Notes: a model not told the origin generated them from the sequence alone. 55,129 nt of DNA from Candidatus Micrarchaeota archaeon (GCA_964467175.1 CAYXNY010000038.1:1-55129); one strand, 5' to 3'. Counted from the stretch's first letter, positions 1,098 to 54,367 are shown. A program made the numbers and translations.

Positions 1098-1946
1098 ATG
1101 GAATATGCAATAAATGATGGATTTATAATTCTAGACAAGCCCCCAAAAATGATATGCCACGAGGTTACTTCCTGGGTTAAAAAAATTGTTGGGGCTAAAA
1201 AGGCAGGCCATGCGGGAACCCTCGACCCGGACGTTACGGGTGTTCTGCCCATAGGTTTTGGACCTTCAACAAAACTCCTCCAATTTATCGCAGGAAAAAG
1301 AAAAATTTATGTTGGGATCGCTTATTTCAAGAAAGAAAAAACAAAAAAAGAGATAGAAGAGATTTTTTCAAAATTCATAGGCGAGATAGAGCAGACCCCT
1401 CCGAAAGAAAGCGCGGTCGCAAAAATAAAACGGAAAAGAAGAATCTACGGATTGAAGCTTCTGGAGGTTGAGGCAAAAAGGGCTTTATTCTATGCAGATG
1501 TTGAAGCGGGCACCTACATCCGCGTTCTTTGCAAAGATATGGGCGGTGAGATGGCGGAGTTGAGGAGGATAAAAGTCGGGGAAATCACAGAAAAAGAAGC
1601 GGTCAGGGTTCAGGATGTAATAGATGCGATGTGGCTGTGGAGGGAAAAAAACGACGATTCGCTCATAAAAAAAATTCTCATTCCGCCGGGTGAAATGATG
1701 GCCCGGGTTATGAAAAGAATAATTATAAAAGAGGGCGCGGCGAAAGCCCTTCTGAGCGGGGCCCAGCTGATGGCGCCGGGAGTGGAAAAAATACAAGAAG
1801 AATTTGAAAAAGGAGAGAATATCGCTCTTTATACTAAGGACTCATTCGTTGGTGTTGCAAAGGCCCTGTATTCCTCGCATGAAATCAAAAATATGAAAAG
1901 AGGGCAGGTGGCAAAAACCCTCCGCATTCATCCGCCCAAGAAATGA
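1098..1946 (+). CDS. cbf5: tRNA/rRNA pseudouridine synthase Cbf5 (TruB family with PUA domain)
   Basis: Catalytic motif HAGTLDPDVTGVLPI and a C-terminal PUA-like region. First ATG is at 1098; the track ORF begins at TTG 1092. Confidence 0.9.
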   Translation: MEYAINDGFIILDKPPKMICHEVTSWVKKIVGAKKAGHAGTLDPDVTGVLPIGFGPSTKLLQFIAGKRKIYVGIAYFKKEKTKKEIEEIFSKFIGEIEQTPPKESAVAKIKRKRRIYGLKLLEVEAKRALFYADVEAGTYIRVLCKDMGGEMAELRRIKVGEITEKEAVRVQDVIDAMWLWREKNDDSLIKKILIPPGEMMARVMKRIIIKEGAAKALLSGAQLMAPGVEKIQEEFEKGENIALYTKDSFVGVAKALYSSHEIKNMKRGQVAKTLRIHPPKK

Positions 1947-1998
1947 AAAATACCCACCGCCATTCGCAAAATAAATATAATATCCCGTGTTGCCTCCC
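1946..1998. repeat. Left copy of a roughly 52-bp imperfect direct repeat (pairs with 3867..3918)
   Basis: AAAAATACC..GCCATTCGCAAAATAAATATAAT.. The 23-nt core is identical in both copies and the flanks are about 80% identical by eye. Confidence 0.7.
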
Positions 1999-2046
1999 TA
2001 GCTCTAAATAACAACAAATTTAAAACTATCCGAACATAAAAAATTT

Positions 2047-2319
2047 GTGCGCATTGCAAAAATTGGTATGGGTGTTTTTGCTATTGTGCTTGGGTGCGGT
2101 TTAGTGTTTAAACCATTTAAGCATAAAGAACCAAAAGAAGAGGTGAAAGTAATGATTGTTGCAGAAAAAAAGGAAGAAGAAAAAATTACCCTACGTGATA
2201 CACTGAAAGAAATACCGAAAAAAGCTGAGTTGGGTACAACACAAGTTCCTGATAAAATAGAGCCGTTTAAACTTTTTAAAAATTCAAAAGGAGTGACTAA
2301 CGCTCCTGGGGAGCGGTAA
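2047..2319 (+). CDS. hypothetical small membrane-anchored protein
   Basis: ORF only, with a GTG start. One N-terminal hydrophobic helix followed by a K/E-rich tail. Overlaps the 3' end of the convergent 512-aa ORF. Confidence 0.25.
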   Translation: MRIAKIGMGVFAIVLGCGLVFKPFKHKEPKEEVKVMIVAEKKEEEKITLRDTLKEIPKKAELGTTQVPDKIEPFKLFKNSKGVTNAPGER

Positions 2320-3835
2320 TCTGTTGGTACAAGTTTATAAGTTCTTCTGGGTTTGAGTAATCTAATTTTTTGGCCGCGTACATGAAAACCTGAGCCGCAT
2401 CCCGGCATAAATCCAATGCAGCATTTTTATCTTCTACAGACCTACAAGACTCAAGTGTTTTTTTGGCATGGTCAAACGATTCTCTCGCTTTTTTCATTGC
2501 AGCGTCGTATTCTATAGAATTGTAGCTCTCAATTGCTTTAAACAAGTCGATTGTTCCAGCAGCCCAATAAAATATAAATTCTTGCTTAACCGGTGCTTTT
2601 GAAGGCATCCAATCATTTGCCTTCTTGTACAAATCTAATGATCTGCTTAAATCTTGAGTAATCCTAGCAGCATTAAGATATGACAATGCGATATTTAAAT
2701 GAGTGTAGTCATCAACATGTGGTTTATGATTGCTAAAAATCTCTTCCATGACTTCGATCATGTCCGGATTTTCTAAACACAACTTTGTAAACACTCCAGT
2801 TAGGTTGTACCACGTGATGAACGTGCTGTACCCACAAGCAAGGGCTAATTGAAAATTAACAATGCTGACGTCATATTGTTCGTTCTTTGCTGCTAAAATT
2901 CCAAACTCACTGTAGTAATTCCCCCTCACTGCATTAGAAAAAGAAAAAACAAACATCTCTATTCTCTTTTCTTTAAATTCATTTGGAAGAAGACTATATT
3001 TCTTTATCTCCAAAATACTTTTTATATCCTTTTCCGTAATCTCATTCAAAACTCCAAGATCGATTGGCTCATTATCAATCTTTGAAGGATCAAAGTAAAC
3101 AACGCCCCATCCATTCTCTCTTGGAAAGCAAACAACCACTCCAGAATGCCCTTGATATTCTCCGAATGGTTCTGACGATTCAAATGAGATAAAAAAAGGA
3201 AAATAATCATATTTCTCGCTTTCTCCCAGTAATGTTCTTCCCTCCGTTATGAAAAAGAACAAACCCCTATTCAAATCATCACATTCCCCACCCCTCTCAA
3301 CAATTTCCTTATCCTTCTCCTTAATTTTTCTTTCAAGTAGCTCGTTAATGCTGTATGGTCCTCCCTTTATCCATCCTAGTTCCCTTATTGAATAGAAAAT
3401 AGCTTCAACCAAATCAACTTGTTTTCTAAAAGTTTTGTATGCTGATTGAAATCTTCTAAATCCATTTCCTTCAGCATTTACTTCAAATGGTTCTTTTATT
3501 TCAATTTTAAAAGCCGAAGAGCTTTCTCCTCCAATTCCAACAGAGTAGGATAAATTAATGGAGGCAATCGGAATTTCAGGATGATGAAGGATGGTTTTCA
3601 GTACATACTCGACAACAGGAAAACCAAAATCTTCCATAACAGTCTGAAATAAAAAATTTTCTCTCAACTCCTTAGTTATTCTTGCTACATCTTTACTTTC
3701 TATTGCACTGATTGCACTTTCTGCCATCTCTGCTCTTTTGCCTCCTTTCTCTTTGTATTTTTGAAGTTCTTTCTTTATCTCTTCCTCCTGTTTTTTGACG
3801 TATTCTTCTAATCTAATAGCCATGGTTTTCAACAT
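2297..3835 (-). CDS. hypothetical protein (512 aa, orphan)
   Basis: Long uninterrupted ORF in a visibly A/T-richer segment. No motif recognised. Confidence 0.6.
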   Translation of the reverse strand: MLKTMAIRLEEYVKKQEEEIKKELQKYKEKGGKRAEMAESAISAIESKDVARITKELRENFLFQTVMEDFGFPVVEYVLKTILHHPEIPIASINLSYSVGIGGESSSAFKIEIKEPFEVNAEGNGFRRFQSAYKTFRKQVDLVEAIFYSIRELGWIKGGPYSINELLERKIKEKDKEIVERGGECDDLNRGLFFFITEGRTLLGESEKYDYFPFFISFESSEPFGEYQGHSGVVVCFPRENGWGVVYFDPSKIDNEPIDLGVLNEITEKDIKSILEIKKYSLLPNEFKEKRIEMFVFSFSNAVRGNYYSEFGILAAKNEQYDVSIVNFQLALACGYSTFITWYNLTGVFTKLCLENPDMIEVMEEIFSNHKPHVDDYTHLNIALSYLNAARITQDLSRSLDLYKKANDWMPSKAPVKQEFIFYWAAGTIDLFKAIESYNSIEYDAAMKKARESFDHAKKTLESCRSVEDKNAALDLCRDAAQVFMYAAKKLDYSNPEELINLYQQITAPQER

Positions 3836-3866
3836 GATGTAAACCGCTTAAAATCTTTTTCGCATA

Positions 3867-3918
3867 AAAAATACCTGCTGCCATTCGCAAAATAAATATA
3901 ATCTTCCGAGTTTCCTGC
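3867..3918. repeat. Right copy of the roughly 52-bp imperfect direct repeat (pairs with 1946..1998)
   Basis: AAAAATACCTGCTGCCATTCGCAAAATAAATATAATCTTCCGAGTTTCCTGC aligned by eye to 1946..1998. Confidence 0.7.
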
Positions 3919-4015: not shown

Positions 4016-4062
4016 TAAACTTTCTTCGGGTTGCCAAGAAAGTTTAATCAAAGAAAATGGAA
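4016..4062 (+). other. tRNA-Ser intron 1 (anticodon loop, nominal 37/38)
   Basis: 47-nt insert between CTGGAA and A-GCGTA. Boundaries can slide within the duplicated GGAA. Contains the hairpin ACTTTCTT-CGGGTTGCC-AAGAAAGT shared with the other inserts. Confidence 0.6.
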
Positions 4063-4094
4063 AGCGTATGCCCTCACGGGCTCATGGGTTCAAA

Positions 4095-4146
4095 GAACCT
4101 TTCTTCGGGTTGCCAAGAAAGGTTTCATCCAAAGAAGGTTTGAATA
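4095..4146 (+). other. tRNA-Ser intron 2 (T-loop, 59/60), canonical BHB
   Basis: Central helix TTCA(4089-4092)/TGAA(4141-4144). Bulges AAG(4093-4095) and TAT(4145-4147). Inner helix AACCTT(4096-4101)/AAGGTT(4135-4140). Excision restores TTCAAAT. Confidence 0.8.
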
Positions 4147-4183
4147 TCCCATCCCCGGCGATGGCAACGCTCAGTTTGGTGGT

Positions 4184-4837
4184 ATGATGGCAAAAGCAGG
4201 AAAAGCGCCTAAAAAGGAAGAGAAGCAAGAAAGAAGGGAAAAGCCTTCGATTAAGGTAGCCGAAGGCATGGAGGAGAAGGGGTTAAGGGGTATTGTTCGC
4301 ATCGCAGGAAAAGATATGCGGGGAGACCTGAAGCTCAAAAGAGCGCTCCTTTATATAAAAGGCATAAGCCATTCGCTAAGAAATCCTGTTGCAAAGCTCA
4401 TTTCAGCAGAACTCGGGATAAGCGAAGACACACTCGTGGGTTCTCTTACAGATGAGCAGATTGCTTCTATCGACAAGGTTTTGTTCAGCATGGACGACAG
4501 CAAGCTTCCGCTCCATCTTCTCAACGACCGGGCGGATATTTACGAAGGAAATAGCAAGCATGTGATAATGAACGACTTGGATTTCATAAACAGAAGGAAT
4601 GTAGAGAACAAGAAGAAGATGTGGAACTGGCAGGGAGAGAGGCTGATAAAGGGAAAGAAGGCAAGAGGGCAGAGAACGAGGAATACCGGAAGGAGAGGGC
4701 TTGCGGTTGGTGTTGCCAAGAAGAAAGAAGTGCCAGGAGCTCAGCCGGGAGCAAAGCCGGGCGCAGGTGCAGCAGCACCGGCTCCAGCGGCCGCAAAGCC
4801 CCAAGCGCCGAAACCTGAAGCTCCGGCCAAGAAATAG
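4184..4837 (+). CDS. rps13: 30S ribosomal protein S13 (uS13) with A/P/K-rich C-terminal tail
   Basis: uS13-like core (RIAGKDMRGD..., GQRTRNTGRRG). ATG 4184 follows GGTGG. The track ORF start at 4031 overlaps the tRNA and is rejected. Confidence 0.9.
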   Translation: MMAKAGKAPKKEEKQERREKPSIKVAEGMEEKGLRGIVRIAGKDMRGDLKLKRALLYIKGISHSLRNPVAKLISAELGISEDTLVGSLTDEQIASIDKVLFSMDDSKLPLHLLNDRADIYEGNSKHVIMNDLDFINRRNVENKKKMWNWQGERLIKGKKARGQRTRNTGRRGLAVGVAKKKEVPGAQPGAKPGAGAAAPAPAAAKPQAPKPEAPAKK

Positions 4838-5406: not shown

Positions 5407-5792
5407 AAGAGGGAAAAACAGCAACAATTAATGTATTTTCTTCAAAAAACGACACCATTATCACCGCAACGGACATGAGCGGCGCAGAAACGATCGCATG
5501 GGCGAGCGGCGGAATGATCGTGAAGGCAGACAGAGAGGAAGGCAGGCCCTATGCGGCCATGCAGGCCGCTGTAAAAGTGGCAAACGCGCTTAAAGAAAAG
5601 GGAATCTCAAGAGTCGTAATAAAAATAAGGGCCCCGGGCGGAAATAAATCAAAAACTCCTGGCGGAGGAGCCCAGGCGGTTGTTAGGATGATTTCAAGGA
5701 TGGGGCTGAGAATCCTGAGAATAGAGGATGTTACTCCTCTTCCGACAGACTCCATGAGGAGGAAAGGCGGAAGGAAAGGAAGGAGGGTGTAG
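5403..5792 (+). CDS. rps11: 30S ribosomal protein S11 (uS11)
   Basis: uS11-like sequence (...PYAAMQAA..., GPGG...). ATGA overlap with the S4 stop. Confidence 0.9.
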
Positions 5793-5793
5793 C

Positions 5794-6369
5794 ATGAAGG
5801 TTGAGCTTGTGAAGAAAAATCCTGAGCGGATTGAAATGGTTTTTGAAGGAGTTCCGTACTACATGGCAAATATTTTAAGGAGGTACGCGATTGCGAAAGT
5901 TCCTGTTTACGCCGTAGATTCGGTAACTTTCTATGAAAACAACTCCTCATTTTTTGATGAATACATCGCGCACAGAATAGGGATGCTTCCGATAAAAACG
6001 CCAAAGGGTTCTCCGGCGGAATCCAATATCGGTTTTTACTTAGATGCCATAGGGCCAAAAAAAGTTTATTCTCAAGAATTGAAAAGCACCGACAAGGATA
6101 TTGTCGTGGCTGTTGAAAACATCCCCATCGTAAAACTCGCAGAAGGGCAGAGCATAAGGTTGGAGGGGAAGCTGAAAAAAGGAATAGGAAGGGAGCACAT
6201 TAAATTCCAGTCCGGAATCTCTTCCTATGAAATAAAACCAGATGGAAAGATATTCTTTTTCTGCGAAAGTATGCATCACATGGATGCACTAGATGTTGTT
6301 AAAAGAGCGCTGGATGAAATAATCGGCGACCTGGAATCCTTAGAAAAGGCCATAAAAAAGGCAAAATAA
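5794..6369 (+). CDS. rpoD: DNA-directed RNA polymerase subunit D (Rpo3), short form
   Basis: Motifs ANILRRYAIAKVPVYAVD and DEYIAHRIGMLPI, and position after S13-S4-S11. At 191 aa it has no Cys-rich Fe-S domain. Confidence 0.85.
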   Translation: MKVELVKKNPERIEMVFEGVPYYMANILRRYAIAKVPVYAVDSVTFYENNSSFFDEYIAHRIGMLPIKTPKGSPAESNIGFYLDAIGPKKVYSQELKSTDKDIVVAVENIPIVKLAEGQSIRLEGKLKKGIGREHIKFQSGISSYEIKPDGKIFFFCESMHHMDALDVVKRALDEIIGDLESLEKAIKKAK

Positions 6370-9508: not shown

Positions 9509-9830
9509 AGGGGGCGAAGCCCCCTATGAGGTTTGTCTCGCCAGGGGGGTATTACCCCACGACTAGGGGGCTCTTAATATATCCTAAACGCCCCCTTACT
9601 CGCCTACCCCCTTATGTAATTCTTAAGCTTAGGGGGACTTCGTCCCCCTCTTACCCCCAAATGAGTTGAAAATAAGCGAAGGGGGGCGAGGCGGAATCGA
9701 GCGCAATAGCACGAGAGACTTGAGCGAAGCTCAAGTGGATAAGCGCCAGGGGGGTATTACCCTCCGGGGCTTATGGGGGAGAAAGGGGAAGGGCATTAAA
9801 AGTAGTCTGGGGGGTGAGCGCCCTTCCCCA
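9509..9830. repeat. G/C-rich hairpin repeat cluster, locus 1
   Basis: Hairpins: AGGGGGC-GAA-GCCCCCT (9509-9525), AGGGGGA-CTTCG-TCCCCCT (9631-9649), CTTGAGC-GAA-GCTCAAG (9719-9735). Core CGCCAGGGGGGTATTACCC occurs at 9539 and 9743. The 44-mer at 9654-9697 recurs at 30567-30610. Confidence 0.6.
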
Positions 9831-19997: not shown

Positions 19998-20291
19998 TTA
20001 TTTTGCCAGGGTTATCTCTATGGATGAAACCTTGCTAGGCCTTCCATCCTCGCTTGTCAGCTCCTCAGTCCCTATCTTTATATCCTTTATCTTTGCGTCC
20101 GGCATAAATCTGTTCTTCACTACCTCCACCACATCCACAGCCCTGGAAATCAGTTTTCCTCTCGCTTTCACTGTTACCTCATTTGCACCGTTGGTAAACT
20201 GGGTAACAACTGCCAGGACATAGCCCATAAGGCCCTTCTTCCCTACATATATTGTGTTCTCCTCTCTTTCTCTTTTTTCTGTCACTGCCAT
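19998..20291 (-). CDS. albA: Alba DNA/RNA-binding protein
   Basis: MAVTEK...[21 protein letters not shown]...[20 protein letters not shown]... ATG 20291 follows GGTGA. The longer track ORF N-terminus is rejected. Confidence 0.9.
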
Positions 20292-23251: not shown

Positions 23252-24808
<1,557 letters not shown>

Positions 24809-24895
24809 AAAAAAGGAAATGCAAGGGGCCCTTCTCTGAATAAACCTTGAAGCCAAACCAAACAAACCAAAATTTCTTTTTTATTAAAACTTAAA

Positions 24896-26761: not shown

Positions 26762-29560
26762 TCATCCCTTCACAACTGCTATCGGCCTTAATTTCGCAAC
26801 GATATTGCTTATTCCTGCAAGCTGCACCGCATGCACAACCTCATCAATATCTTTATAAGCATCCGGTGCCTCTTCAGCTGCAACGCTCCATGTAGCGGGC
26901 TTCACTACTATCCCCCTTTCTCCAAGCTCCCTTACCACCTGTTCTCCTCTATGTTTTCTTATCGCCTCATGCCTGCTCATCACTCTTCCGGCACCATGGC
27001 ATGTGGAGCCGAAGCTAACCTCAAGGCCCTTAGGATTTCCGACGAGAACATAGCTTGCGGTTCCCATGCTTCCAGGTATTATTACCGGCTGCCCTATATT
27101 CATGTATTTTTTTGGCAGTTCTTTCCTTCCAGCAGGAAAAGCCCTTGTGGCTCCTTTTCTATGCACAATCAAATTCATATTTTTCCCATCAACAATATGC
27201 TCTTCGAATTTTGCAATGTTATGCGCAACATCGTAAACTATTTGCATAGAGTCCATTACATTTGAGCCATAAACCTTTCCGAAGCTCTCCCTCACCCAGT
27301 GCATTATCATCTGCCTGTTTGTGAAGGCGAAATTCACCGCGCATTTCATCGCCTTTATATATGCCTCTCCTTCTTTGCTGTTTACGGGCGCGTATGCGAG
27401 CTCAGGGTCTGCCAACCGTACATTGTTTTTCTTCGCCCATCCCATCACAACATTTATGTAATCGCTTGCAACCTGATGGCCAAACCCCCGCGAACCGGTA
27501 TGGATCATTACAACAATCTGCCCTTCGTAAAACCCGAATGCCTTTGCAACCTCCGGCAGATGGATTTTTTCAACATACTGAATTTCTAAGAAATGGTTTC
27601 CTGCGCCGAGCGTTCCAAGCTGTGGTTTTCCCCTCTTCATTGCTGTTGGACTGATTTTTGAAGGGTCTGCACCTTCAATACAGCCGTATTCCTCTATCCC
27701 TTCTTTGTCCTCCTTCCATCCGTAGTCGTTCTCAATTGCCCAGTCCACTCCGCGCACCATCACTTCGTTGAGCTCGTCTTCGCTCAGCCTCACCTTTCCC
27801 TCGCTTCCGACTCCGCTAGGAACGTTTTTGAAAAGCTCCTGCACAATCTCCCTTATTTTCGGCTTAACTTCCTTCTGCTCCATATTCGTTAGAAGCAGCC
27901 TGACGCCGCAGTTTGAAACAACCACACCATTTGCAACGAATCTATGCGAATCCTCAACTGTGAAATCGTACACCTCTCCTTTATAATGTCCTTTGCGTAT
28001 TTCGATTATCGGTGAAACAAGCGCACCGAATATACTATAGTACCCCACCTGTTCCTTAAGGAATTCTCTAAAGCTTGGAATGGAAAGCGGCGCCCTTGGT
28101 TTTTTGTTTTCATAGTAAGCCCTTTCTATAAATCTTTTGTTCGCCCATTTTGAAGAAAACATCTCCTGCAGCTCTGCCAAGGAAAAGCCCTTTTTCTTGT
28201 ACTTTCTTATTTTTATTCTGATCTTCTCCCGCTCTTCTCTATAAAGTCTTTTCAGACCTATGTAAAGAACAGCGGCCATTGCAGCCACCATTCTCTTTTC
28301 ATTATACTCAAATCCTATTTTTCTGTAAAGCTTCTCTATGTTCTCCTCCCTTCCGCCTATGCCCATCCTCAGCCTTATTTTTTTGCCTTTCCTTTCTGCT
28401 ACCTTTATTTCTCCAACATCCACACCAAATTCATCGAGCAGTTCTGCGATATCAAGAAGGAAGGCCCTTGCGTTTTTCTCCATCCTTTTTATTTTGTTCA
28501 TGTTTATCTTTGGAATGTAAAAGCCTGTTTTTGACGAGGTGCTTGGGGAGGAAAGCTCTGCCCCAAAAAACCCTGCCAAGTACAGCCTCTTTATCCATAG
28601 AGGTGCTTTCTTTATCCACTCTGGCACTCTGAACTCTGTTTCCGTTTTGTTCCCAACCGGTGCTCCCAAATAAATCAGCTTCTCGACAAACTCTTTTGAA
28701 TACACATGAAGCTCTGCTGTTCTCGAAACAAACTCCCTGTTCTTTATTCTGTGCTTTCTTGTTCTTTCCACAAGATGCGCATGGTATCCAAGTTTTTCAA
28801 CATCCTTTTTCATTTTTTCTAAATCCGTTCTTTTGCCGAAAAATATCCCCCTCAGTTTTTTGCCGCAATGGGTTAGCGTCCCATTCCCGGTGAGGTATCC
28901 TATAAGTTTTGCATAGATCGCAAGCTCCTCCTCATTCTCAGCAAAATACTCATATTCCGCTCCTTCAAAAGGATAAACCAGAAGTTTTTCATCTTCTTTA
29001 ACTTCATGAGGCATCATCCTTCCTCTTATGGTTATGAGGGGATGGTCTTGGGTGAGCTTAACCGTTCCGGCCAGTGTTATAATCTCATACACCGCGCCGT
29101 CGTATTTTTTGTGCATAAAATAGGTCGCCCTCCCTTCTTCGTACCCCGTTAAAACATCAGCATTTCCTTCAAGAAGAACAACACCATTTTTTTGATATAT
29201 CTCATGGAAGTATTCTTTGAACTCATTTATTCTCTTCCAATACCCCAAAGGAGACAGTATTCTGCTCTCCGGTAGCAAGCAGTTTATGTCATAACCAACA
29301 CCACCGGGAGACACTATTCCATCTTCGGCAGGAAACGCAGCCACCCCTCCGATCGGAAACCCGTACCCCTCGTGCCCGTCCGGCATCAGCAGGGCATTCT
29401 TCACAATGCTTGGTAGCCCGGCGACATTCTTCAGTTGCCATATCGTCCTGTCCTTCTTCATCTGCCCCAGCATTTTTTCAGTTGCAAAAATTATGCCGGG
29501 AACTTTCATTCCCTCCTCTTTAAATTCCCATGTCGCCTTTCCAATCTCCTTAAACTCCAT
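26762..29560 (-). CDS. rtcB: RtcB RNA 3'-phosphate ligase (tRNA-splicing ligase), intein-containing precursor
   Basis: RtcB motifs (MPDGHEGYGFPIGGV, GAGNHF, HTGSRGFGHQ, CHGAGR). 932 aa in total; the exteins sum to about 475 aa. Confidence 0.9.
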   Translation of the reverse strand: MEFKEIGKATWEFKEEGMKVPGIIFATEKMLGQMKKDRTIWQLKNVAGLPSIVKNALLMPDGHEGYGFPIGGVAAFPAEDGIVSPGGVGYDINCLLPESRILSPLGYWKRINEFKEYFHEIYQKNGVVLLEGNADVLTGYEEGRATYFMHKKYDGAVYEIITLAGTVKLTQDHPLITIRGRMMPHEVKEDEKLLVYPFEGAEYEYFAENEEELAIYAKLIGYLTGNGTLTHCGKKLRGIFFGKRTDLEKMKKDVEKLGYHAHLVERTRKHRIKNREFVSRTAELHVYSKEFVEKLIYLGAPVGNKTETEFRVPEWIKKAPLWIKRLYLAGFFGAELSSPSTSSKTGFYIPKINMNKIKRMEKNARAFLLDIAELLDEFGVDVGEIKVAERKGKKIRLRMGIGGREENIEKLYRKIGFEYNEKRMVAAMAAVLYIGLKRLYREEREKIRIKIRKYKKKGFSLAELQEMFSSKWANKRFIERAYYENKKPRAPLSIPSFREFLKEQVGYYSIFGALVSPIIEIRKGHYKGEVYDFTVEDSHRFVANGVVVSNCGVRLLLTNMEQKEVKPKIREIVQELFKNVPSGVGSEGKVRLSEDELNEVMVRGVDWAIENDYGWKEDKEGIEEYGCIEGADPSKISPTAMKRGKPQLGTLGAGNHFLEIQYVEKIHLPEVAKAFGFYEGQIVVMIHTGSRGFGHQVASDYINVVMGWAKKNNVRLADPELAYAPVNSKEGEAYIKAMKCAVNFAFTNRQMIMHWVRESFGKVYGSNVMDSMQIVYDVAHNIAKFEEHIVDGKNMNLIVHRKGATRAFPAGRKELPKKYMNIGQPVIIPGSMGTASYVLVGNPKGLEVSFGSTCHGAGRVMSRHEAIRKHRGEQVVRELGERGIVVKPATWSVAAEEAPDAYKDIDEVVHAVQLAGISNIVAKLRPIAVVKG
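27911..29281 (-). mobile_element. intein (457 aa) with LAGLIDADG homing-endonuclease domain, inserted in RtcB
   Basis: Splits the conserved GVGYDIN|CGVR. Starts CLLPES and ends VVVSN, followed by +1 Cys. Block B is LTQDHPL. LAGLIDADG-like LIGYLTGNG and YLAGFFGAE. Boundary codons were checked in the DNA. Confidence 0.85.
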
Positions 29561-30375: not shown

Positions 30376-30472
30376 AATTTTTCTATTAATAAAAAAGGTT
30401 TAAATATGTTCTGGAATGAAGGCAGACCGCAGAATGAGAGACTACACCCATCCCACATAAACATAAGAATAT

Positions 30473-30645
30473 GCGAAGGGGGGCGAGGCGGAATAAGCGC
30501 CAGGGGGATACTTCCTCCGGGGCAATAAATATTACTAATAACCGAAAGGGGGCTTTGGGGGTATTACCCCCAAATGAGTTGAGAATAAGCGAAGGGGGGC
30601 GAGGCGGAATAAGCGCCAGGGGGGTATTACCCCCCGGGGCTTATT
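30473..30645. repeat. G/C-rich hairpin repeat cluster, locus 2
   Basis: GCGAAGGGGGGCGAGGCGGAATAAGCGCCAGGGGG occurs at 30473-30507 and 30589-30623. The 44-mer at 30567-30610 matches 9654-9697 with one mismatch. Long hairpin ATAAGCGCCAGGGGGGTATTACCCCCCGGGGCTTAT. Confidence 0.6.
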
Positions 30646-42986: not shown

Positions 42987-43008
42987 ACCGAGCGGTTGGG
43001 GGTTCAAA

Positions 43009-43060
43009 GAACCTTTCTTCGGGTTGCCAAGAAAGGTTTCATCCAAAGAAGGTTTGAAAC
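43009..43060 (+). other. tRNA-Arg intron 2 (T-loop 59/60), canonical BHB
   Basis: 50 of 52 nt are identical to tRNA-Ser intron 2. TTCA(43003-06)/TGAA(43055-58), bulges AAG and ACT, AACCTT(43010-15)/AAGGTT(43049-54). Confidence 0.8.
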
Positions 43061-43075
43061 TCCCCTCGGGCTCGC

Positions 43076-47106: not shown

Positions 47107-47127
47107 AGCAGTTTATTGGGCAAATAA

Positions 47128-47156
47128 AATAAAAAGGTTTCTTTTGGTATTAGAAA
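47128..47156. repeat. 29-bp perfect direct repeat, left copy (pairs with 48164..48192)
   Basis: AATAAAAAGGTTTCTTTTGGTATTAGAAA. Lies in the pyrG upstream region, directly abutting the HEPN stop. Confidence 0.8.
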
Positions 47157-47158
47157 AA

Positions 47159-47599
47159 TTATGCCAACAGTTTTTTGCATGCCTCAATAATCTCCCTGGC
47201 CACTTCTACTGCTTCTTTAATTTCCTCTTCTCCTATTTCTTCGCTCTCGAAGCCATAAAGGGCGTCGTGTCTTTCCTCTTTATACGCTTCCATCGCATTT
47301 ATCAAGTGTAAAGGAAACTTCCCCTTTCTTGCGTATTTTTCGTTCATATATTTTATCAAACAATGATGCGATTTCTCCTGCACACCATCTCTGTAAAGTA
47401 CAGCCCTCGCAGCATGAAACATCGATGCGTATGCCATCACAAGTCCGGATATCAAAGCCCGGTTTTTTAAGTTTATTTCCGCTTCTTTCAAGCAAGCCTC
47501 AGCAGATTCGAGAGATTTTTTTGATTTTATAAAATCAGGCCTTGTCTTCCTTAGCTTTCTCTCTTCAAAACATCTTTCAACCTCTTCAAGCATGTTCAA
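47159..47599 (-). CDS. HEPN domain protein (toxin-like partner of MNT)
   Basis: Helical, about 146 aa, with ...HAARAVLYRDGVQEKSHHCL... Overlaps the upstream nucleotidyltransferase gene by 14 nt. Confidence 0.65.
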   Translation of the reverse strand: MNMLEEVERCFEERKLRKTRPDFIKSKKSLESAEACLKEAEINLKNRALISGLVMAYASMFHAARAVLYRDGVQEKSHHCLIKYMNEKYARKGKFPLHLINAMEAYKEERHDALYGFESEEIGEEEIKEAVEVAREIIEACKKLLA

Positions 47600-48140
47600 C
47601 TATCGGTAGATTTCCTTTTAAAACTATGGAGTTTGTGATGACCTCTATGTAGAATGCTTTGTTTTTTTCCGCAACTTTTTTCCATTCTTCAAGAGTAAGG
47701 CATTTCAGGTTTATCTCGCGCTTTAGCATTTCCGAAATCACTAACTTGTCCGCGTTGCATCCTGATGCGATGACAAGAATATCATAATCGCTGTTTTCAT
47801 CATCCTCTCCTCTTGCAGTACTCCCATAAACAAGCAGGCTTTGCAGTCCAAAGCTGTTTTTTGCTATGTACTCAATTACGCCACTCTTTTCTATTAGGTA
47901 GGTTGAGTAGGCAATTTTTAGTTTTTTAACCGTTAGGGACATGATTGGCTTTACAAAAACCCTTCCGTACGATTTCTTCCTCTCAACAAGCCCATATTCA
48001 GAAAGATGCTTAATCATTCTATAGCATGTTGAAGAGCTTGTCCCAGTTTTTCTTGCAAGTTCTCTTAAGTGAATCGCTTTATACGGATGCTCTAGAAGAT
48101 ACGGAAGCACTCTGTTCCATTTTTGAAATATATTTTTCAT
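47586..48140 (-). CDS. minimal nucleotidyltransferase (MNT) with N-terminal winged-helix domain
   Basis: LLVYGSTARGEDDENSDYDILVI (GSx..D.D NTase motif). N-terminal wHTH (LRELARKTGTSSSTCYRMIKHLSEYGLV). Confidence 0.75.
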   Translation of the reverse strand: MKNIFQKWNRVLPYLLEHPYKAIHLRELARKTGTSSSTCYRMIKHLSEYGLVERKKSYGRVFVKPIMSLTVKKLKIAYSTYLIEKSGVIEYIAKNSFGLQSLLVYGSTARGEDDENSDYDILVIASGCNADKLVISEMLKREINLKCLTLEEWKKVAEKNKAFYIEVITNSIVLKGNLPIVEHA

Positions 48141-48163
48141 ATTTAGAACATTAAAGGAAAGAG

Positions 48164-48192
48164 AATAAAAAGGTTTCTTTTGGTATTAGAAA
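48164..48192. repeat. 29-bp perfect direct repeat, right copy
   Basis: Identical to 47128..47156. Lies 24 nt upstream of the MNT start codon. Confidence 0.8.
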
Positions 48193-48197
48193 TAGGG

Positions 48198-48381
48198 CGT
48201 TGCAAATTAAACATTTTAACCGCTATTCGCTTAAATAAAAAAATAAACAAAAAAATTTTTTGCTTCGCTTCTCGGAGAAGATGAAGAGAATAGAAGAGAA
48301 AGAAAAGCGAGATGCGAGTTTTTTATTTTTATTTTTTTGTTGTTTTTGCGGCAGCGGGTTTTTCAGAGATAATTTGCAACG
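48198..48381. repeat. 184-bp imperfect palindrome with 12-bp perfect terminal inverted repeats
   Basis: CGTTGCAAATTA (48198-48209) and TAATTTGCAACG (48370-48381). The arms carry an A-run and a T-run. The centre is purine-rich. Confidence 0.5.
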
Positions 48382-48425
48382 GGCGCATTAGAAAAATCAA
48401 GAAAATTTGAAAAATAAAAAATAAA

Positions 48426-51427: not shown

Positions 51428-52171
51428 TCATTTTATGTTAGTAAATGTTTTTAAACCCACAGGCAAATACTCCACCAAATCCCCTGCAGAATACCAATAC
51501 CCATTTTTTTTGAATGCCATCTCCCCGGCCATTTTCAAAACATTTGCTCCAGCCAGAGCAGATTCTAACAAAGAATTTTTTGTTGCAAGGGCAGAAACAA
51601 AGCCCGCAAGCACATCTCCGGTTCCTCCCTTCGTCAGGCCGGCATTCCCTCCTTTTATTTCATAAACTTTTTTTCCGTCGCTCACAAAATCAACAGGCCC
51701 TTTTTTCAGAATAACACATCCATATTTTTTTGCCATTTCCTTAACATTCTGCTTTGTTCCTTCCTTTCCAAAAAAATACTCAAACTCCCCTTCGTGTGGC
51801 GTGATGAGGAATTTTTCGTTTAACATTTTTTTATTTATTTTTTTGAACCCATCTCCATCTATAATTATTTTTTTCACATTCTTAACAATTCTTTTTGCAT
51901 CTAATTTGGAATTTCCCAGCCCAGGCCCAAAAAGAACAGCGTCGCATTTTTCCAAAACAGAAAGGTCATAAACAACGATAACTTCCGGGATATTCTTCAC
52001 AGCATTTATCAAATAGCAGTCGTTTTCGCCCGGATAAAAATACACCAAATCCACAAACCTTTTTGCCGCGTTTATCGCGAGCAGGGCAGAGCCATGGTAT
52101 TGCTTTGAACCGGCAACTATAAGCAGTTTTCCGTTCTCCCCTTTGTGGGAATTCTTATCCGGAATGAACAT
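51428..52171 (-). CDS. nnrD: ADP/ATP-dependent NAD(P)H-hydrate dehydratase (YjeF C-terminal type)
   Basis: HKGENGKLLIVAGS and GGTGDVLAG motifs. Confidence 0.8.
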   Translation of the reverse strand: MFIPDKNSHKGENGKLLIVAGSKQYHGSALLAINAAKRFVDLVYFYPGENDCYLINAVKNIPEVIVVYDLSVLEKCDAVLFGPGLGNSKLDAKRIVKNVKKIIIDGDGFKKINKKMLNEKFLITPHEGEFEYFFGKEGTKQNVKEMAKKYGCVILKKGPVDFVSDGKKVYEIKGGNAGLTKGGTGDVLAGFVSALATKNSLLESALAGANVLKMAGEMAFKKNGYWYSAGDLVEYLPVGLKTFTNIK

Positions 52172-52211
52172 GTTTTAATCACTCTTTGAGAATTTAAAAA
52201 CGTTGCTTTTT

Positions 52212-52258
52212 ACAAATTTGCAAACTATAATTGACAAATTTGTTGAAAATTTGCAAAC
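52212..52258. repeat. 47-bp perfect direct repeat, left copy (pairs with 53479..53525)
   Basis: ACAAATTTGCAAACTATAATTGACAAATTTGTTGAAAATTTGCAAAC. Contains nested palindromes CAAATTTG (twice) and TTTGCAAA (twice). Confidence 0.9.
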
Positions 52259-52271
52259 AAATTTAAGCCTT

Positions 52272-53501
52272 ATGGTCCAAAAAATGAGCATGAACCTAAG
52301 AGAGCAGTTGTTTCTGATGAACCCCCATTGGGAGGATGGCTTTTTTTATCCATTCCCAATAAAAAGGTACGCCTTTTCTAAATTAAAGTCTGGCCTTTCC
52401 CAGCCGCTTATGCTTTCTTTAACCGGCCCGAGAAGGGTCGGAAAGACCGTCCTTATGAAACAACTCATAAACCAACTAATAGAGGATGGTTATCCCAGGA
52501 GAAACATCCTGTTTTTTAGCGCAGACGATTTCTTTGGCGAGCCGCTAGAAATAGTAAAAGAATGGGAAAAGATCCTGGGTAAAAAAATAAGTGGAAAAAA
52601 CTATTTTCTGTTCTTCGACGAGATACAAAACGTCAATGAATGGGCAAAAAAACTAAAACTCCTCTACGATAACCTCGGGATAAAAATATTTGTGAGCGGT
52701 TCTGCTTCCATGCAGATGAGAAAAGGTTCTGAAAGCCTAGCCGGAAGGATGCTTGAGTTCTACATCCCACCCCTCTTTTACAATGAATACTTACTGTTTT
52801 CCGGTAAACCAAAGAACGAACTGGAAGAGAAGAGATGGGAAGAATACCAGTTTTATATGATGCGGCAACTTCCTGAGCTTGCCATCTACCCGACTCTAGA
52901 TAGCAAAGATTACATCACAAGCATAGTAAAAAAGGTGATTTACGAAGATGTGAAGAAGTATTTTAACGTTGAGGAGACAGAAGTTATAGATGGAATATTT
53001 AAGGTTATTTGCAAGGATCCCGGCCAGATTATTTCTGTTGTTGACATTGCAAAAGATTTTGGCATAAGCAGGGTTAGTGCTTCAAATTATCTTTTTGCGC
53101 TCGAGAAAAGTTATCTTATCAGAAAACTCTACAATTACTCTAACAATCCAAGAAAAACAGAGACCCGGGCAAAGAAATACTATCCGTATTATACTTCTTT
53201 GCTTTCCTATGCTCCTCCTACCGAATTTGGAAAAATCGCAGAAACAGAAGTGGCGTGGAAAACAAACGCAGAGTTTTTCTGGAATGAAAGAGGAAAGGAG
53301 ATAGATTTTATAGTTGATAAAAAAGGAATAGAGGTAAAGATGAGAAAATCCGTAGACAATTCAGATGTTAAATGGCTTATAAAAAATCCTATTGGCCTAA
53401 AAGAAAAAATAGTTGTTGTCCTCCCGAACGCAAAATTGAACCTTAAAGAGGTTGGAAAGGTTAGTTTGGATGAAATAGACAAATTTGCAAACTATAATTG
53501 A
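52272..53501 (+). CDS. AAA-family ATPase, COG1373/DUF4143-like
   Basis: Walker A LTGPRRVGKT, Walker B FLFFDEIQ, and a C-terminal DUF4143-like region. First ATG is at 52272; the track ORF starts at TTG 52203 inside the repeat. Confidence 0.75.
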   Translation: MVQKMSMNLREQLFLMNPHWEDGFFYPFPIKRYAFSKLKSGLSQPLMLSLTGPRRVGKTVLMKQLINQLIEDGYPRRNILFFSADDFFGEPLEIVKEWEKILGKKISGKNYFLFFDEIQNVNEWAKKLKLLYDNLGIKIFVSGSASMQMRKGSESLAGRMLEFYIPPLFYNEYLLFSGKPKNELEEKRWEEYQFYMMRQLPELAIYPTLDSKDYITSIVKKVIYEDVKKYFNVEETEVIDGIFKVICKDPGQIISVVDIAKDFGISRVSASNYLFALEKSYLIRKLYNYSNNPRKTETRAKKYYPYYTSLLSYAPPTEFGKIAETEVAWKTNAEFFWNERGKEIDFIVDKKGIEVKMRKSVDNSDVKWLIKNPIGLKEKIVVVLPNAKLNLKEVGKVSLDEIDKFANYN

Positions 53502-53525
53502 CAAATTTGTTGAAAATTTGCAAAC
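53479..53525. repeat. 47-bp perfect direct repeat, right copy
   Basis: Identical to 52212..52258. Encodes the last 7 codons and the stop of the ATPase gene. Confidence 0.9.
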
Positions 53526-54367
53526 TAAAACCCTTCAATCCTGAGTTTGTATCTTATAGATGTTCCAAAATCTGTTATGGCTGCTCCCTCTTCAACGATT
53601 GATTTATACGGGTCCCTGTCCATCACCTTTCTAACTTTATCCTCAAACCACTTTATCGCGTCAAGCATTCTCATGCCATCGATCTTTCCTCCATCTGCAT
53701 TCTCCATCCAAACGCTTTTTTCTTCTCCGTCAAAATCCTCTGCTCTCGGTAGTTTTAGAATAAATATTTTTTCATCTAAGCCGGTTTTTAATCCGGATTC
53801 TTCTTCAAGCGCTTTAATATTATAAACAAATTCTTCTAGCGATTTTGCCCTATACCCGTTTATCCCCAAAATCAGCTCCTCGTTTTCGCCGATTATCCTT
53901 ACAAAAGCATGGGCCTCTTCTTTAGGTATGTTCTTTTTATCCACTAGCATCGCTACATATATCTCTGCTTTATATCCTTTTTGAACCGCAAGATTTGCCA
54001 TATACGCAGCCCATTCAATACATACACTCTTTTTTGCCCTTCCTTCTATGAAATCCATTATATCGATGTCCACACCAATTTTTTCTGCGTTCTTTATATA
54101 ATATGTTTTTACTCCTTCTTTAAAAGATCCTAATCTTGCCTTTAATTCTTTCCCAATTTCATAAAAGTCCTCAATCTTACCCTCATACCCTAAGCTATTT
54201 GCAAGGGAATCGATCTGCGGGTCTTTATAAATCGTTATCAAATTAGGCTGAGAGTCGTTCGCGTAAGGAAATAGATACTGTTCTACTTTTGTTCCGGCGA
54301 AAAGTTTTGTCGCTAAAAAAAGAGAGGAAACCGCAGTTATCACAAACCCGCATTTTCTAATGCGCAT
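53525..54367 (-). CDS. secreted protein, possible transglutaminase-like core
   Basis: Signal peptide. KKSVCIEWAAYMANLAVQKG (Cys) and EEAHAFVRIIGENEE (His). Pattern match only. Confidence 0.45.
   Translation of the reverse strand: MRIRKCGFVITAVSSLFLATKLFAGTKVEQYLFPYANDSQPNLITIYKDPQIDSLANSLGYEGKIEDFYEIGKELKARLGSFKEGVKTYYIKNAEKIGVDIDIMDFIEGRAKKSVCIEWAAYMANLAVQKGYKAEIYVAMLVDKKNIPKEEAHAFVRIIGENEELILGINGYRAKSLEEFVYNIKALEEESGLKTGLDEKIFILKLPRAEDFDGEEKSVWMENADGGKIDGMRMLDAIKWFEDKVRKVMDRDPYKSIVEEGAAITDFGTSIRYKLRIEGF

Follow-up and report, generated by a model that had tools for sequence, protein, structure and literature searches.

Repeat-bracketed ATPase gene and its closest described relatives

Among prokaryotic defence candidates, the passages of PMC12988326 that treat the family PDC-S01 describe it as abundant, enriched in archaea and unvalidated, with an ATPase fused to a PD-(D/E)xK domain; by the same account it is the fourth most common candidate of all, its function, ligand and target are not known, and validation is still pending for most such candidates. 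The DUF4143 family is listed as PD-(D/E)XK in the relevant part of PMC3424549. A gene of this kind lies in a stretch of 55,129 nucleotides (nt) from Candidatus Micrarchaeota archaeon (GCA_964467175.1 CAYXNY010000038.1:1-55129; hereafter the window), where it is bracketed by two direct copies of a 47-base-pair (bp) sequence, here called R. The R-promoter-gene-R unit is best explained, at about even confidence, as a self-contained, horizontally moved module of a DPANN-archaeal PDC-S01 subfamily, with R serving as a double-stranded, three-box protein-binding array of ~47 bp, most likely for the module's own winged-helix AAA+ protein. One PDC-S01 subfamily would thereby gain a candidate cognate DNA site, a conserved ~47-bp element that travels with the gene, stands on both sides of it and evolves in concert.

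At the protein level the gene conforms to PDC-S01/COG1373 as modelled in PADLOC, having the same AAA_14 and DUF4143 domains and the same fusion of an ATPase to PD-(D/E)xK (PMC3424549, PMC12988326, in the parts dealing with the family); those passages mention no flanking DNA element for PDC-S01, DUF4143 or COG1373. Integron cassettes, including those of archaeal integrons (PMC9668308), resemble the unit in consisting of a single promoter-proximal open reading frame (ORF) of ~1.3 kb with a palindrome-rich 3' site, in occurring in DPANN metagenome-assembled genomes, and in the idea of a circular cassette intermediate. Unlike integrons, the 55-kb window has no integron-type tyrosine recombinase; in each of the five contexts described below R flanks a single gene on either side, without arrays, and it overlaps coding sequence. 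R also differs from attC in lacking RYYYAAC...GTTRRRY cores on either strand and a conserved hairpin.

Archaeal integrated elements of the SSV or pTN3 type have att direct repeats of 40-60 bp, an integrase and tRNA targets. They are similar to the R unit in the length of the flanking direct repeats and in the overlap of att with an element gene, whereas the R unit has no integrase and no tRNA target, no empty site was found for it, and its repeat comes from the element itself rather than being shared with the host. Long terminal repeat elements and partial-tandem integrated circular replicons likewise carry terminal direct copies that are identical within and different between elements, but the R unit encodes neither reverse transcriptase nor Rep, and its repeat is far shorter and homogenised in place. 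From insertion sequences and transposons it differs by ends that are direct and not inverted, and by the lack of a flank duplication and a transposase. Finally, Orc1/Cdc6 genes with their origin recognition boxes share with this locus an initiator-like AAA+ domain followed by a winged helix and short repeated boxes beside the gene, whereas the present ATPase has an added PD-(D/E)xK domain, the direct boxes stand on both sides, and no sign of an origin was seen. The R-gene-R DNA architecture fits neither integron cassettes nor att-flanked elements nor insertion sequences, and its fit to origin modules is doubtful.

Anatomy of the repeat and the enclosed gene

R (ACAAATTTGCAAACTATAATTGACAAATTTGTTGAAAATTTGCAAAC) occurs exactly twice in the window, both times on the plus strand, and no further copy was found there at up to 3 mismatches (shuffled sequences lead one to expect 0). 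The first-pass annotation of this DNA had reported the identical pair at 52212-52258 and 53479-53525, which an exact repeat search bears out, and had described two pairs of palindromes and a central TATAAT within it, all of which are present: CAAATTTG at repeat positions 2-9 and 24-31, TTTGCAAA at 6-13 and 39-46, and TATAAT at 15-20. It had further placed one AAA ATPase/DUF4143 gene between the copies, in agreement with Pfam (AAA_14 at 1.1e-28 and DUF4143 at 6e-17, both above gathering scores). Its reading of the right copy holds as well: this copy encodes (D)KFANYN, the last codons of the ATPase, together with the TGA stop (53499-53501), and it lies between convergent gene ends, its last base being the first base of the complement of the TAG stop of a gene for a 280-amino-acid (280-aa) protein. 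The unit comprises the following features.

52212..52258, plus strand: left R, with box A (AAATTTGCAAAC) at 52214-52225, box B (CAAATTTG) at 52235-52242 and box C (AAATTTGCAAAC) at 52247-52258
52259..52267, plus strand: TATA-like box AAATTTAAG, read from the sequence, ~27 nt before ATG 52290
52290..53501, plus strand: ATPase-nuclease gene, 403 aa from ATG 52290, or 409 aa if ATG 52272 is used
53479..53525, plus strand: right R, with box A at 53481-53492, box B at 53502-53509 and box C at 53514-53525

ATG 52290 (MNLREQ...) is the likeliest start of the ATPase because 403-aa homologues begin at that position (MNL/MEN); ATG 52272 and TTG 52203 are less likely. A TATA-like box ~27 nt before this codon suggests a leaderless mRNA, of which AAATTTAAG would be the archaeal promoter. 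The upstream and downstream sides of the ATPase gene have a word of 47 nt in common; among 50 genes in the window the corresponding longest shared word never exceeds 13 nt, and its median is 8 nt. An assembly artefact is ruled out by independent assemblies from JGI, ENA (contigs named in the style of SPAdes and MEGAHIT) and Logan, in which the R-ATPase-R arrangement recurs.

Recurrence of the unit in unrelated genomic contexts

ATPase homologues of 54-63% identity occur in four unrelated contexts in other metagenome-assembled genomes, and each of them is bracketed by homologous direct copies of R.

L026: homologue P0006, 63% identity; repeat of 46 nt exact; spacing 1267
L027: homologue P0009, 54% identity; repeat of 48 nt exact, or 69 nt at 91%; spacing 1282
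L029: homologue P0008, 60% identity; repeat of 27 nt exact, or 53 nt at 94%; spacing 1432
L037: homologue P0010, 62% identity; repeat with a 25-nt exact core, ~87% over 47 nt

These homologues share a conserved C-terminal motif, NEIDK(F/L)A(N/K)(Y/F)x, which makes the first ~23 nt of R native ATPase coding sequence. As the first half of R consists of the ATPase's own codons, R belongs to the cassette and not to a chromosomal target; the site-gene-site unit in four other unrelated locations leads to the same conclusion, namely that the R sites belong to the gene. These comparisons show that the unit moved as a block into different genomic surroundings, bounded each time by the outer edges of R.

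A profile of R run with nhmmer on 295 kb of related sequence matched only these pairs and found no solo copy. A metagenome scan for the double 12-mer recovered R only at this type of locus, in the window's own lineage and in single copy, the other 9 matches being chance ones with different spacing. Viral contigs contained neither a relative of the ATPase nor the R core; a scan of a genome collection with the ATPase returned only one partial relative of 32% identity; and five distant DUF4143 genes on plasmids had no flanking repeat, their longest upstream/downstream shared word being at most 10 nt. Paired R is limited to one DPANN subfamily of PDC-S01.

When the R copies are aligned, they share ACAxxxTTGmAAA...CAAAwwTGyTGAAAAyTTGmAAA, that is, the box AAAyTTGmAAA twice, 33 bp or three helical turns apart, with CAAAwwTG in between. 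The part best conserved across cassettes is the non-coding half, boxes B-C (CAAAwwTGyTGAAAAyTTG). In all six cassettes compared, the left R ends 2-18 nt before an A/T-rich TATA-like box, and this box precedes the ATG by ~25-27 nt. Five of the six have a right R that overlaps the stop codon of the ATPase; in L029 it lies 90 nt farther on. Isolated boxes AAAYTTGMAAA elsewhere in the window number 5, against ~1 expected, and fall mostly within coding regions.

No conserved single-strand fold was found in R, predicted folds differing among six homologous copies (z-scores from +0.2 to -3.1), a result more in keeping with protein binding to duplex DNA than with an attC-like hairpin or an RNA structure. 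A hairpin or attC-like structure with covariation between the window and L029 was dropped, as L026, L027 and L037 do not preserve the pairing and the folds are not alike. Repeat similarity reaching far past R was also rejected, local alignments in the A/T-rich flanks being unreliable; only in L029 does flank similarity plausibly extend further, over ~140 nt that start at the ATPase stop, run to the end of R and are decayed in between. The L029 unit is situated between two tandem RNase_T paralogues (3205-3801 and 5669-6262) that are 56% identical.

Conservation and concerted evolution at the locus

Further evidence comes from the same locus in related lineages, where the unit is framed by two neighbouring genes.

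51428..52171, minus strand: nnrD, NAD(P)H-hydrate dehydratase (Carb_kinase family, by Pfam), the left neighbour, outside the module
52191-52200, minus strand: TATA-like box TTTTTAAATT of nnrD, just outside R, nnrD marking the left border of the module
53525..54367, minus strand: 280-aa hypothetical protein, the right neighbour, convergent with the ATPase gene; N-terminal hydrophobic segment, no Pfam match

The left R thus sits between the divergent promoter-like boxes of nnrD and the ATPase. The order nnrD(-), R, ATPase(+), R, 280-aa gene(-) is kept in two further lineages, one represented by L003, L018 and L019, whose ATPase has 93% protein identity, the other by L015 and L016, at 81%. Between the window and L018 coding DNA is 90.4% and third positions are 78.6% identical, yet R has 0 changes over 94 positions (P ~8e-5 at that rate). 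Between the window and L015 the corresponding values are 76.1% and 50.3%, and R differs at 3 of 47 positions (C14T, A18G, C43A), each of the three changes being present in both copies of L015; within each genome the R copies are identical. Intergenic DNA directly outside R is poorly conserved between lineages. Given the constancy of R and the parallel changes in its two copies, purifying selection acts strongly on R at either position, and the copies evolve in concert. The ATPase gene is itself under purifying selection, as its amino-acid identity of 81% between lineages against 50% at third positions demonstrates. Taken together, the comparative data show that the unit carries at either end, in R, a cis element that is specific to the gene and under selection.

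These figures bear directly on the simplest alternative, in which the R pair is a functionless, neutral scar of a tandem duplication or insertion whose copies owe their identity only to chance or gene conversion. Conversion between direct repeats at a distance of 1.27 kb is feasible, and the window contains two other repeat-bracketed units; however, a scar is hardly credible for a sequence that is 94-100% conserved where third positions are 50-79% identical and the adjoining intergenic DNA has diverged, and whose homologous pairs persist in cassettes with proteins only 54-63% identical.

A sigma-70 promoter (TATAAT/TTGACA) within R was considered and ruled out: the host is archaeal by its 16S rRNA and the names of homologues, which makes bacterial -35/-10 logic inapplicable, and L015 has TATGAT at this place.

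In more than 10 assemblies of three lineages the unit is always found at the same place. The Anstonellales metagenome-assembled genomes L020-L025, whose nnrD is 82-87% identical, keep the nnrD promoter region and have no ATPase beside nnrD; no R-like sequence was found upstream of nnrD in these cassette-free relatives. The stretch from nnrD to a patatin gene contains different, non-homologous genes in each lineage, from which it follows that the unit was gained, or was lost together with its surroundings. The 280-aa protein has only 3 homologue clusters among 5.8 billion proteins, all from the three cassette-bearing lineages, and is not homologous to the genes at the same position in L020 or L025. 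Two near-identical strains from two other samples, L001 and L002, show single-base differences in nnrD and the 280-aa gene and none in the 1.3-kb cassette (52100-53700 compared).

The ATPase-nuclease as a candidate ligand of R

The ATPase matches the PADLOC model PDC-S01 at 1.5e-55. It combines an AAA+ domain (Walker A GPRRVGKT, Walker B FFDEIQ), a winged helix and a C-terminal PD-(D/E)xK motif (E..EIDF..IEVK). Residues of the catalytic type for PD-(D/E)xK (E318/E320, D339, E348-x-K350) are invariant in 15 aligned homologues, as are the Walker A/B motifs and the winged-helix segment, and the recognition-helix region (GISRxxAxNY) is strongly conserved. A sequence search of the PDB with the ATPase gave no match. 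In a Foldseek comparison with the PDB, its AlphaFold (AF2) model, which has a predicted local distance difference test score (pLDDT) of 92.5, matched best the DNA-bound Orc1/Cdc6 2qby_A (E 3e-7, with a low template-modelling (TM) score of 0.35), followed by clamp loaders, RuvB, ORC, DnaA and STAND NTPases. To judge by the model, the winged helix and the initiator-like AAA+ fold would suit DNA binding.

Such matches raise the alternative of a tiny integrated replicon, with R as an origin-recognition-box-like element and the ATPase as an Orc1/Cdc6-like initiator; an integration of greater than unit length would have left the two R behind. An Orc1/Cdc6 bound to origin DNA is indeed the best fold match, with ORC, DnaA and clamp loaders next in line, and R is built of repeated short boxes beside an initiator-like gene. 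This origin is nevertheless very unlikely: the low TM-scores aside, the R copies are direct and flank the gene rather than being inverted around an unwinding element, the additional nuclease domain is foreign to initiators, and viral contigs contain no matching sequence. Neither an inverted box pair nor an unwinding element nor a local switch in GC skew was seen at the R locus.

Under the preferred reading of R as a protein-binding array carried by a mobile module, the likeliest ligand would be the module's own Orc1/Cdc6-like AAA+ winged-helix protein. As the left R abuts the TATA-like box of the ATPase gene, binding there could result in autoregulation. The right R, on or just after the stop codon, may provide a second site for an oligomeric protein and close off the unit. 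Recombination between the two direct copies, by gene conversion or unequal exchange, would keep them identical.

Several points weigh against this interpretation. The ligand of R could be a host factor. A role for a 3'-end site is conjectural, and in L029 the right R lies beyond the gene. Concerted evolution would also be expected from cycles of excision and re-integration, the interpretation does not account for the entry of a block with direct terminal repeats into new sites, and the independent contexts number only 5. More distant relatives add to these points. L030, with a 48% homologue of the ATPase, has no downstream repeat, and in L033, with a 45% homologue, the gene is accompanied by a 42-nt direct repeat unrelated to R (81%, with 17 nt exact; 2702-2743 and 4207-4248), which brackets a HicB-like gene together with the ATPase and whose right copy overlaps the ATPase stop; a PIN toxin pair adjoins it. 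L030 carries, at 2897-2962 and ~40 nt before the start, two tandem 33-nt palindrome-rich elements (AATwTGCATGTTT...CAAAC.TG.CTATTAT) that match the R profile weakly (E 0.3), and these paired upstream elements suggest that two operator-like sites may be a wider feature of the family.

Recombination and mobility

The first-pass annotation had likened the R pair to attL/attR products of the integration of a circular cassette, and had suggested looking for an empty site and for circular forms. The data support one part of this proposal, the discrete unit, absent beside nnrD in close relatives and present in four other contexts with repeats at both ends. The comparison with attL/attR is not supported: the first ~23 nt of R are the ATPase's own codons, cassette-free relatives lack a single R, and synteny is constant in the three carrier lineages. 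An empty site with one R next to nnrD was not found, either through nnrD orthologues in relatives, where R is lacking and unrelated genes are present, or through homologues of the 280-aa gene. The two cassette-only contigs, L017 and L028, turned out to be products of assembly breaks: they start at position 17 of R and stop at position 30, which is what a 46-nt repeat causes in an assembly with k=31, and hence are not circles. The annotation was right that the unit encodes no integrase or transposase. Moreover, a Pfam search of the window's non-overlapping ORFs of at least 80 aa found no recombinase, integrase or transposase domain (DDE, HUH, serine, tyrosine) anywhere in the 55 kb.

A less probable alternative is that the R copies are recombination sites in their own right, an exchange between them freeing a 1267-bp circle with intact gene, promoter and one R that would re-integrate elsewhere. 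Catalysis would fall to the module's PD-(D/E)xK nuclease and AAA+ ATPase or to host recombination, and R would come to stand at both ends of the new insertion if the circle were cut in a staggered way across R and then filled in. The expected junctions are GCTTTTT-R-TAAAACCC for the empty site and GATGAAATAG-R-AAATTTAAGCC for the circle or a tandem copy. Such a process would account for the unit's presence in five unrelated contexts with borders at the outer R edges and its absence beside nnrD in close relatives. It would likewise fit R copies that are alike within a genome and different between genomes, with a left-right divergence of 0 to ~13% among cassettes, as if they had been identical at insertion and then drifted. 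Moreover, neither the linear nor the circular form interrupts the reading frame, and the nuclease motif is invariant. Yet the 295 kb of related sequence contain neither a solo R nor an empty site, the place of the unit does not vary among the more than 10 assemblies from three lineages, the metagenome scan shows a single copy of it, and the cassette-only contigs are accounted for by assembly. There are no target-site duplications, inverted ends or known recombinase, and the conservation of R far exceeds the needs of a short crossover core. In addition, parallel substitutions at a stable syntenic locus require homogenisation in place in any case.

It is tempting to go one step further and regard R-gene-R as an unrecognised minimal autonomous mobile element of DPANN archaea, in which the AAA+/winged-helix/PD-(D/E)xK product of a single gene recognises R, cuts or recombines it, frees a 1.27-kb circle and regenerates the direct terminal copies. 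We consider this unlikely; if true, the abundant defence-candidate family PDC-S01 would include selfish elements with cognate sites. More broadly, gene-sized units with direct terminal repeats have moved among small DPANN genomes without a known recombinase, which bears on the exchange of accessory genes.

The window and its other repeats

The window is an ordinary segment of an archaeal chromosome, assigned to Ca. Anstonellales (DPANN). Besides one tRNA and a 16S rRNA gene (23252-24809) it encodes, by Pfam, the ribosomal proteins S13, S4 and S11, RpoD, RuBisCO, CTP synthase and an intein-bearing RtcB; the nearest homologues of nnrD and the ATPase carry the names Candidatus Anstonellales or Micrarchaeota (DPANN archaea). 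Two other units in it are bracketed by direct repeats.

47122-47156 and 48158-48192: 35-nt direct repeat (94%); insert at ~47147-48401 with a winged-helix nucleotidyltransferase (47586..48140) and a HEPN protein (47159..47599), a toxin-antitoxin pair
1943-1995 and 3864-3916: 53-nt direct repeat (85%) bracketing the minus-strand hypothetical ORFs 2297..3835 (512 aa) and 2004..2408

The toxin-antitoxin insert is absent from L015, and its 35-nt repeat is the native upstream/promoter region of pyrG, single-copy in L015 and L022; the repeat is therefore target-derived, unlike R. At the same spot, between a small ORF and pyrG, L022 (8731-9042) and L023 (4284-4595) have a 103-aa DUF4143 fragment, so that the DNA upstream of pyrG may be a hotspot of recurrent insertion. 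The unit at 1943-3916 lies between the gene of a TruB/PUA pseudouridine synthase and the S13-S4-S11-RpoD operon; its repeat copy at 1943 overlaps the truB stop codon, and both 53-nt copies contain AAAATAAATATAAT. The first-pass annotation had seen in the three units a hint of a common process of cassette capture. They are alike in being repeat-bracketed, and to that extent a shared process may be kept as a loose idea, but the pyrG-side repeat derives from the target and R from the cassette, and in this respect the parallel fails.

The window has further features of its own. The gene of the RtcB tRNA ligase (26762-29560, minus strand; product of 932 aa) is split by an intein (Pfam Intein_splicing). 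A hairpin-containing element (CTTTCTTCGGGTTGCCAAGAAAGGTTTCATCC...) forms a tandem pair at 4022-4058 and 4086-4153 ahead of the S13 operon, occurs once more at 43000-43067 ahead of a DUF357 gene (68 nt, 96%) and is found inverted at 20017-20040, near 20.0 kb; it resembles the segment 23961-23997 of the 16S rRNA gene (84%) and may be an rRNA-mimic leader or a small RNA. G+C-rich repeats (GCGAAGGGGGGCGAGGCGGAATAAGCGCCAGGGGGGTATTACCCC...) of up to 98% identity occupy two intergenic regions 21 kb apart, 9539-9774 and 30448-30644, and are partly tandem with a spacing of 116 nt.

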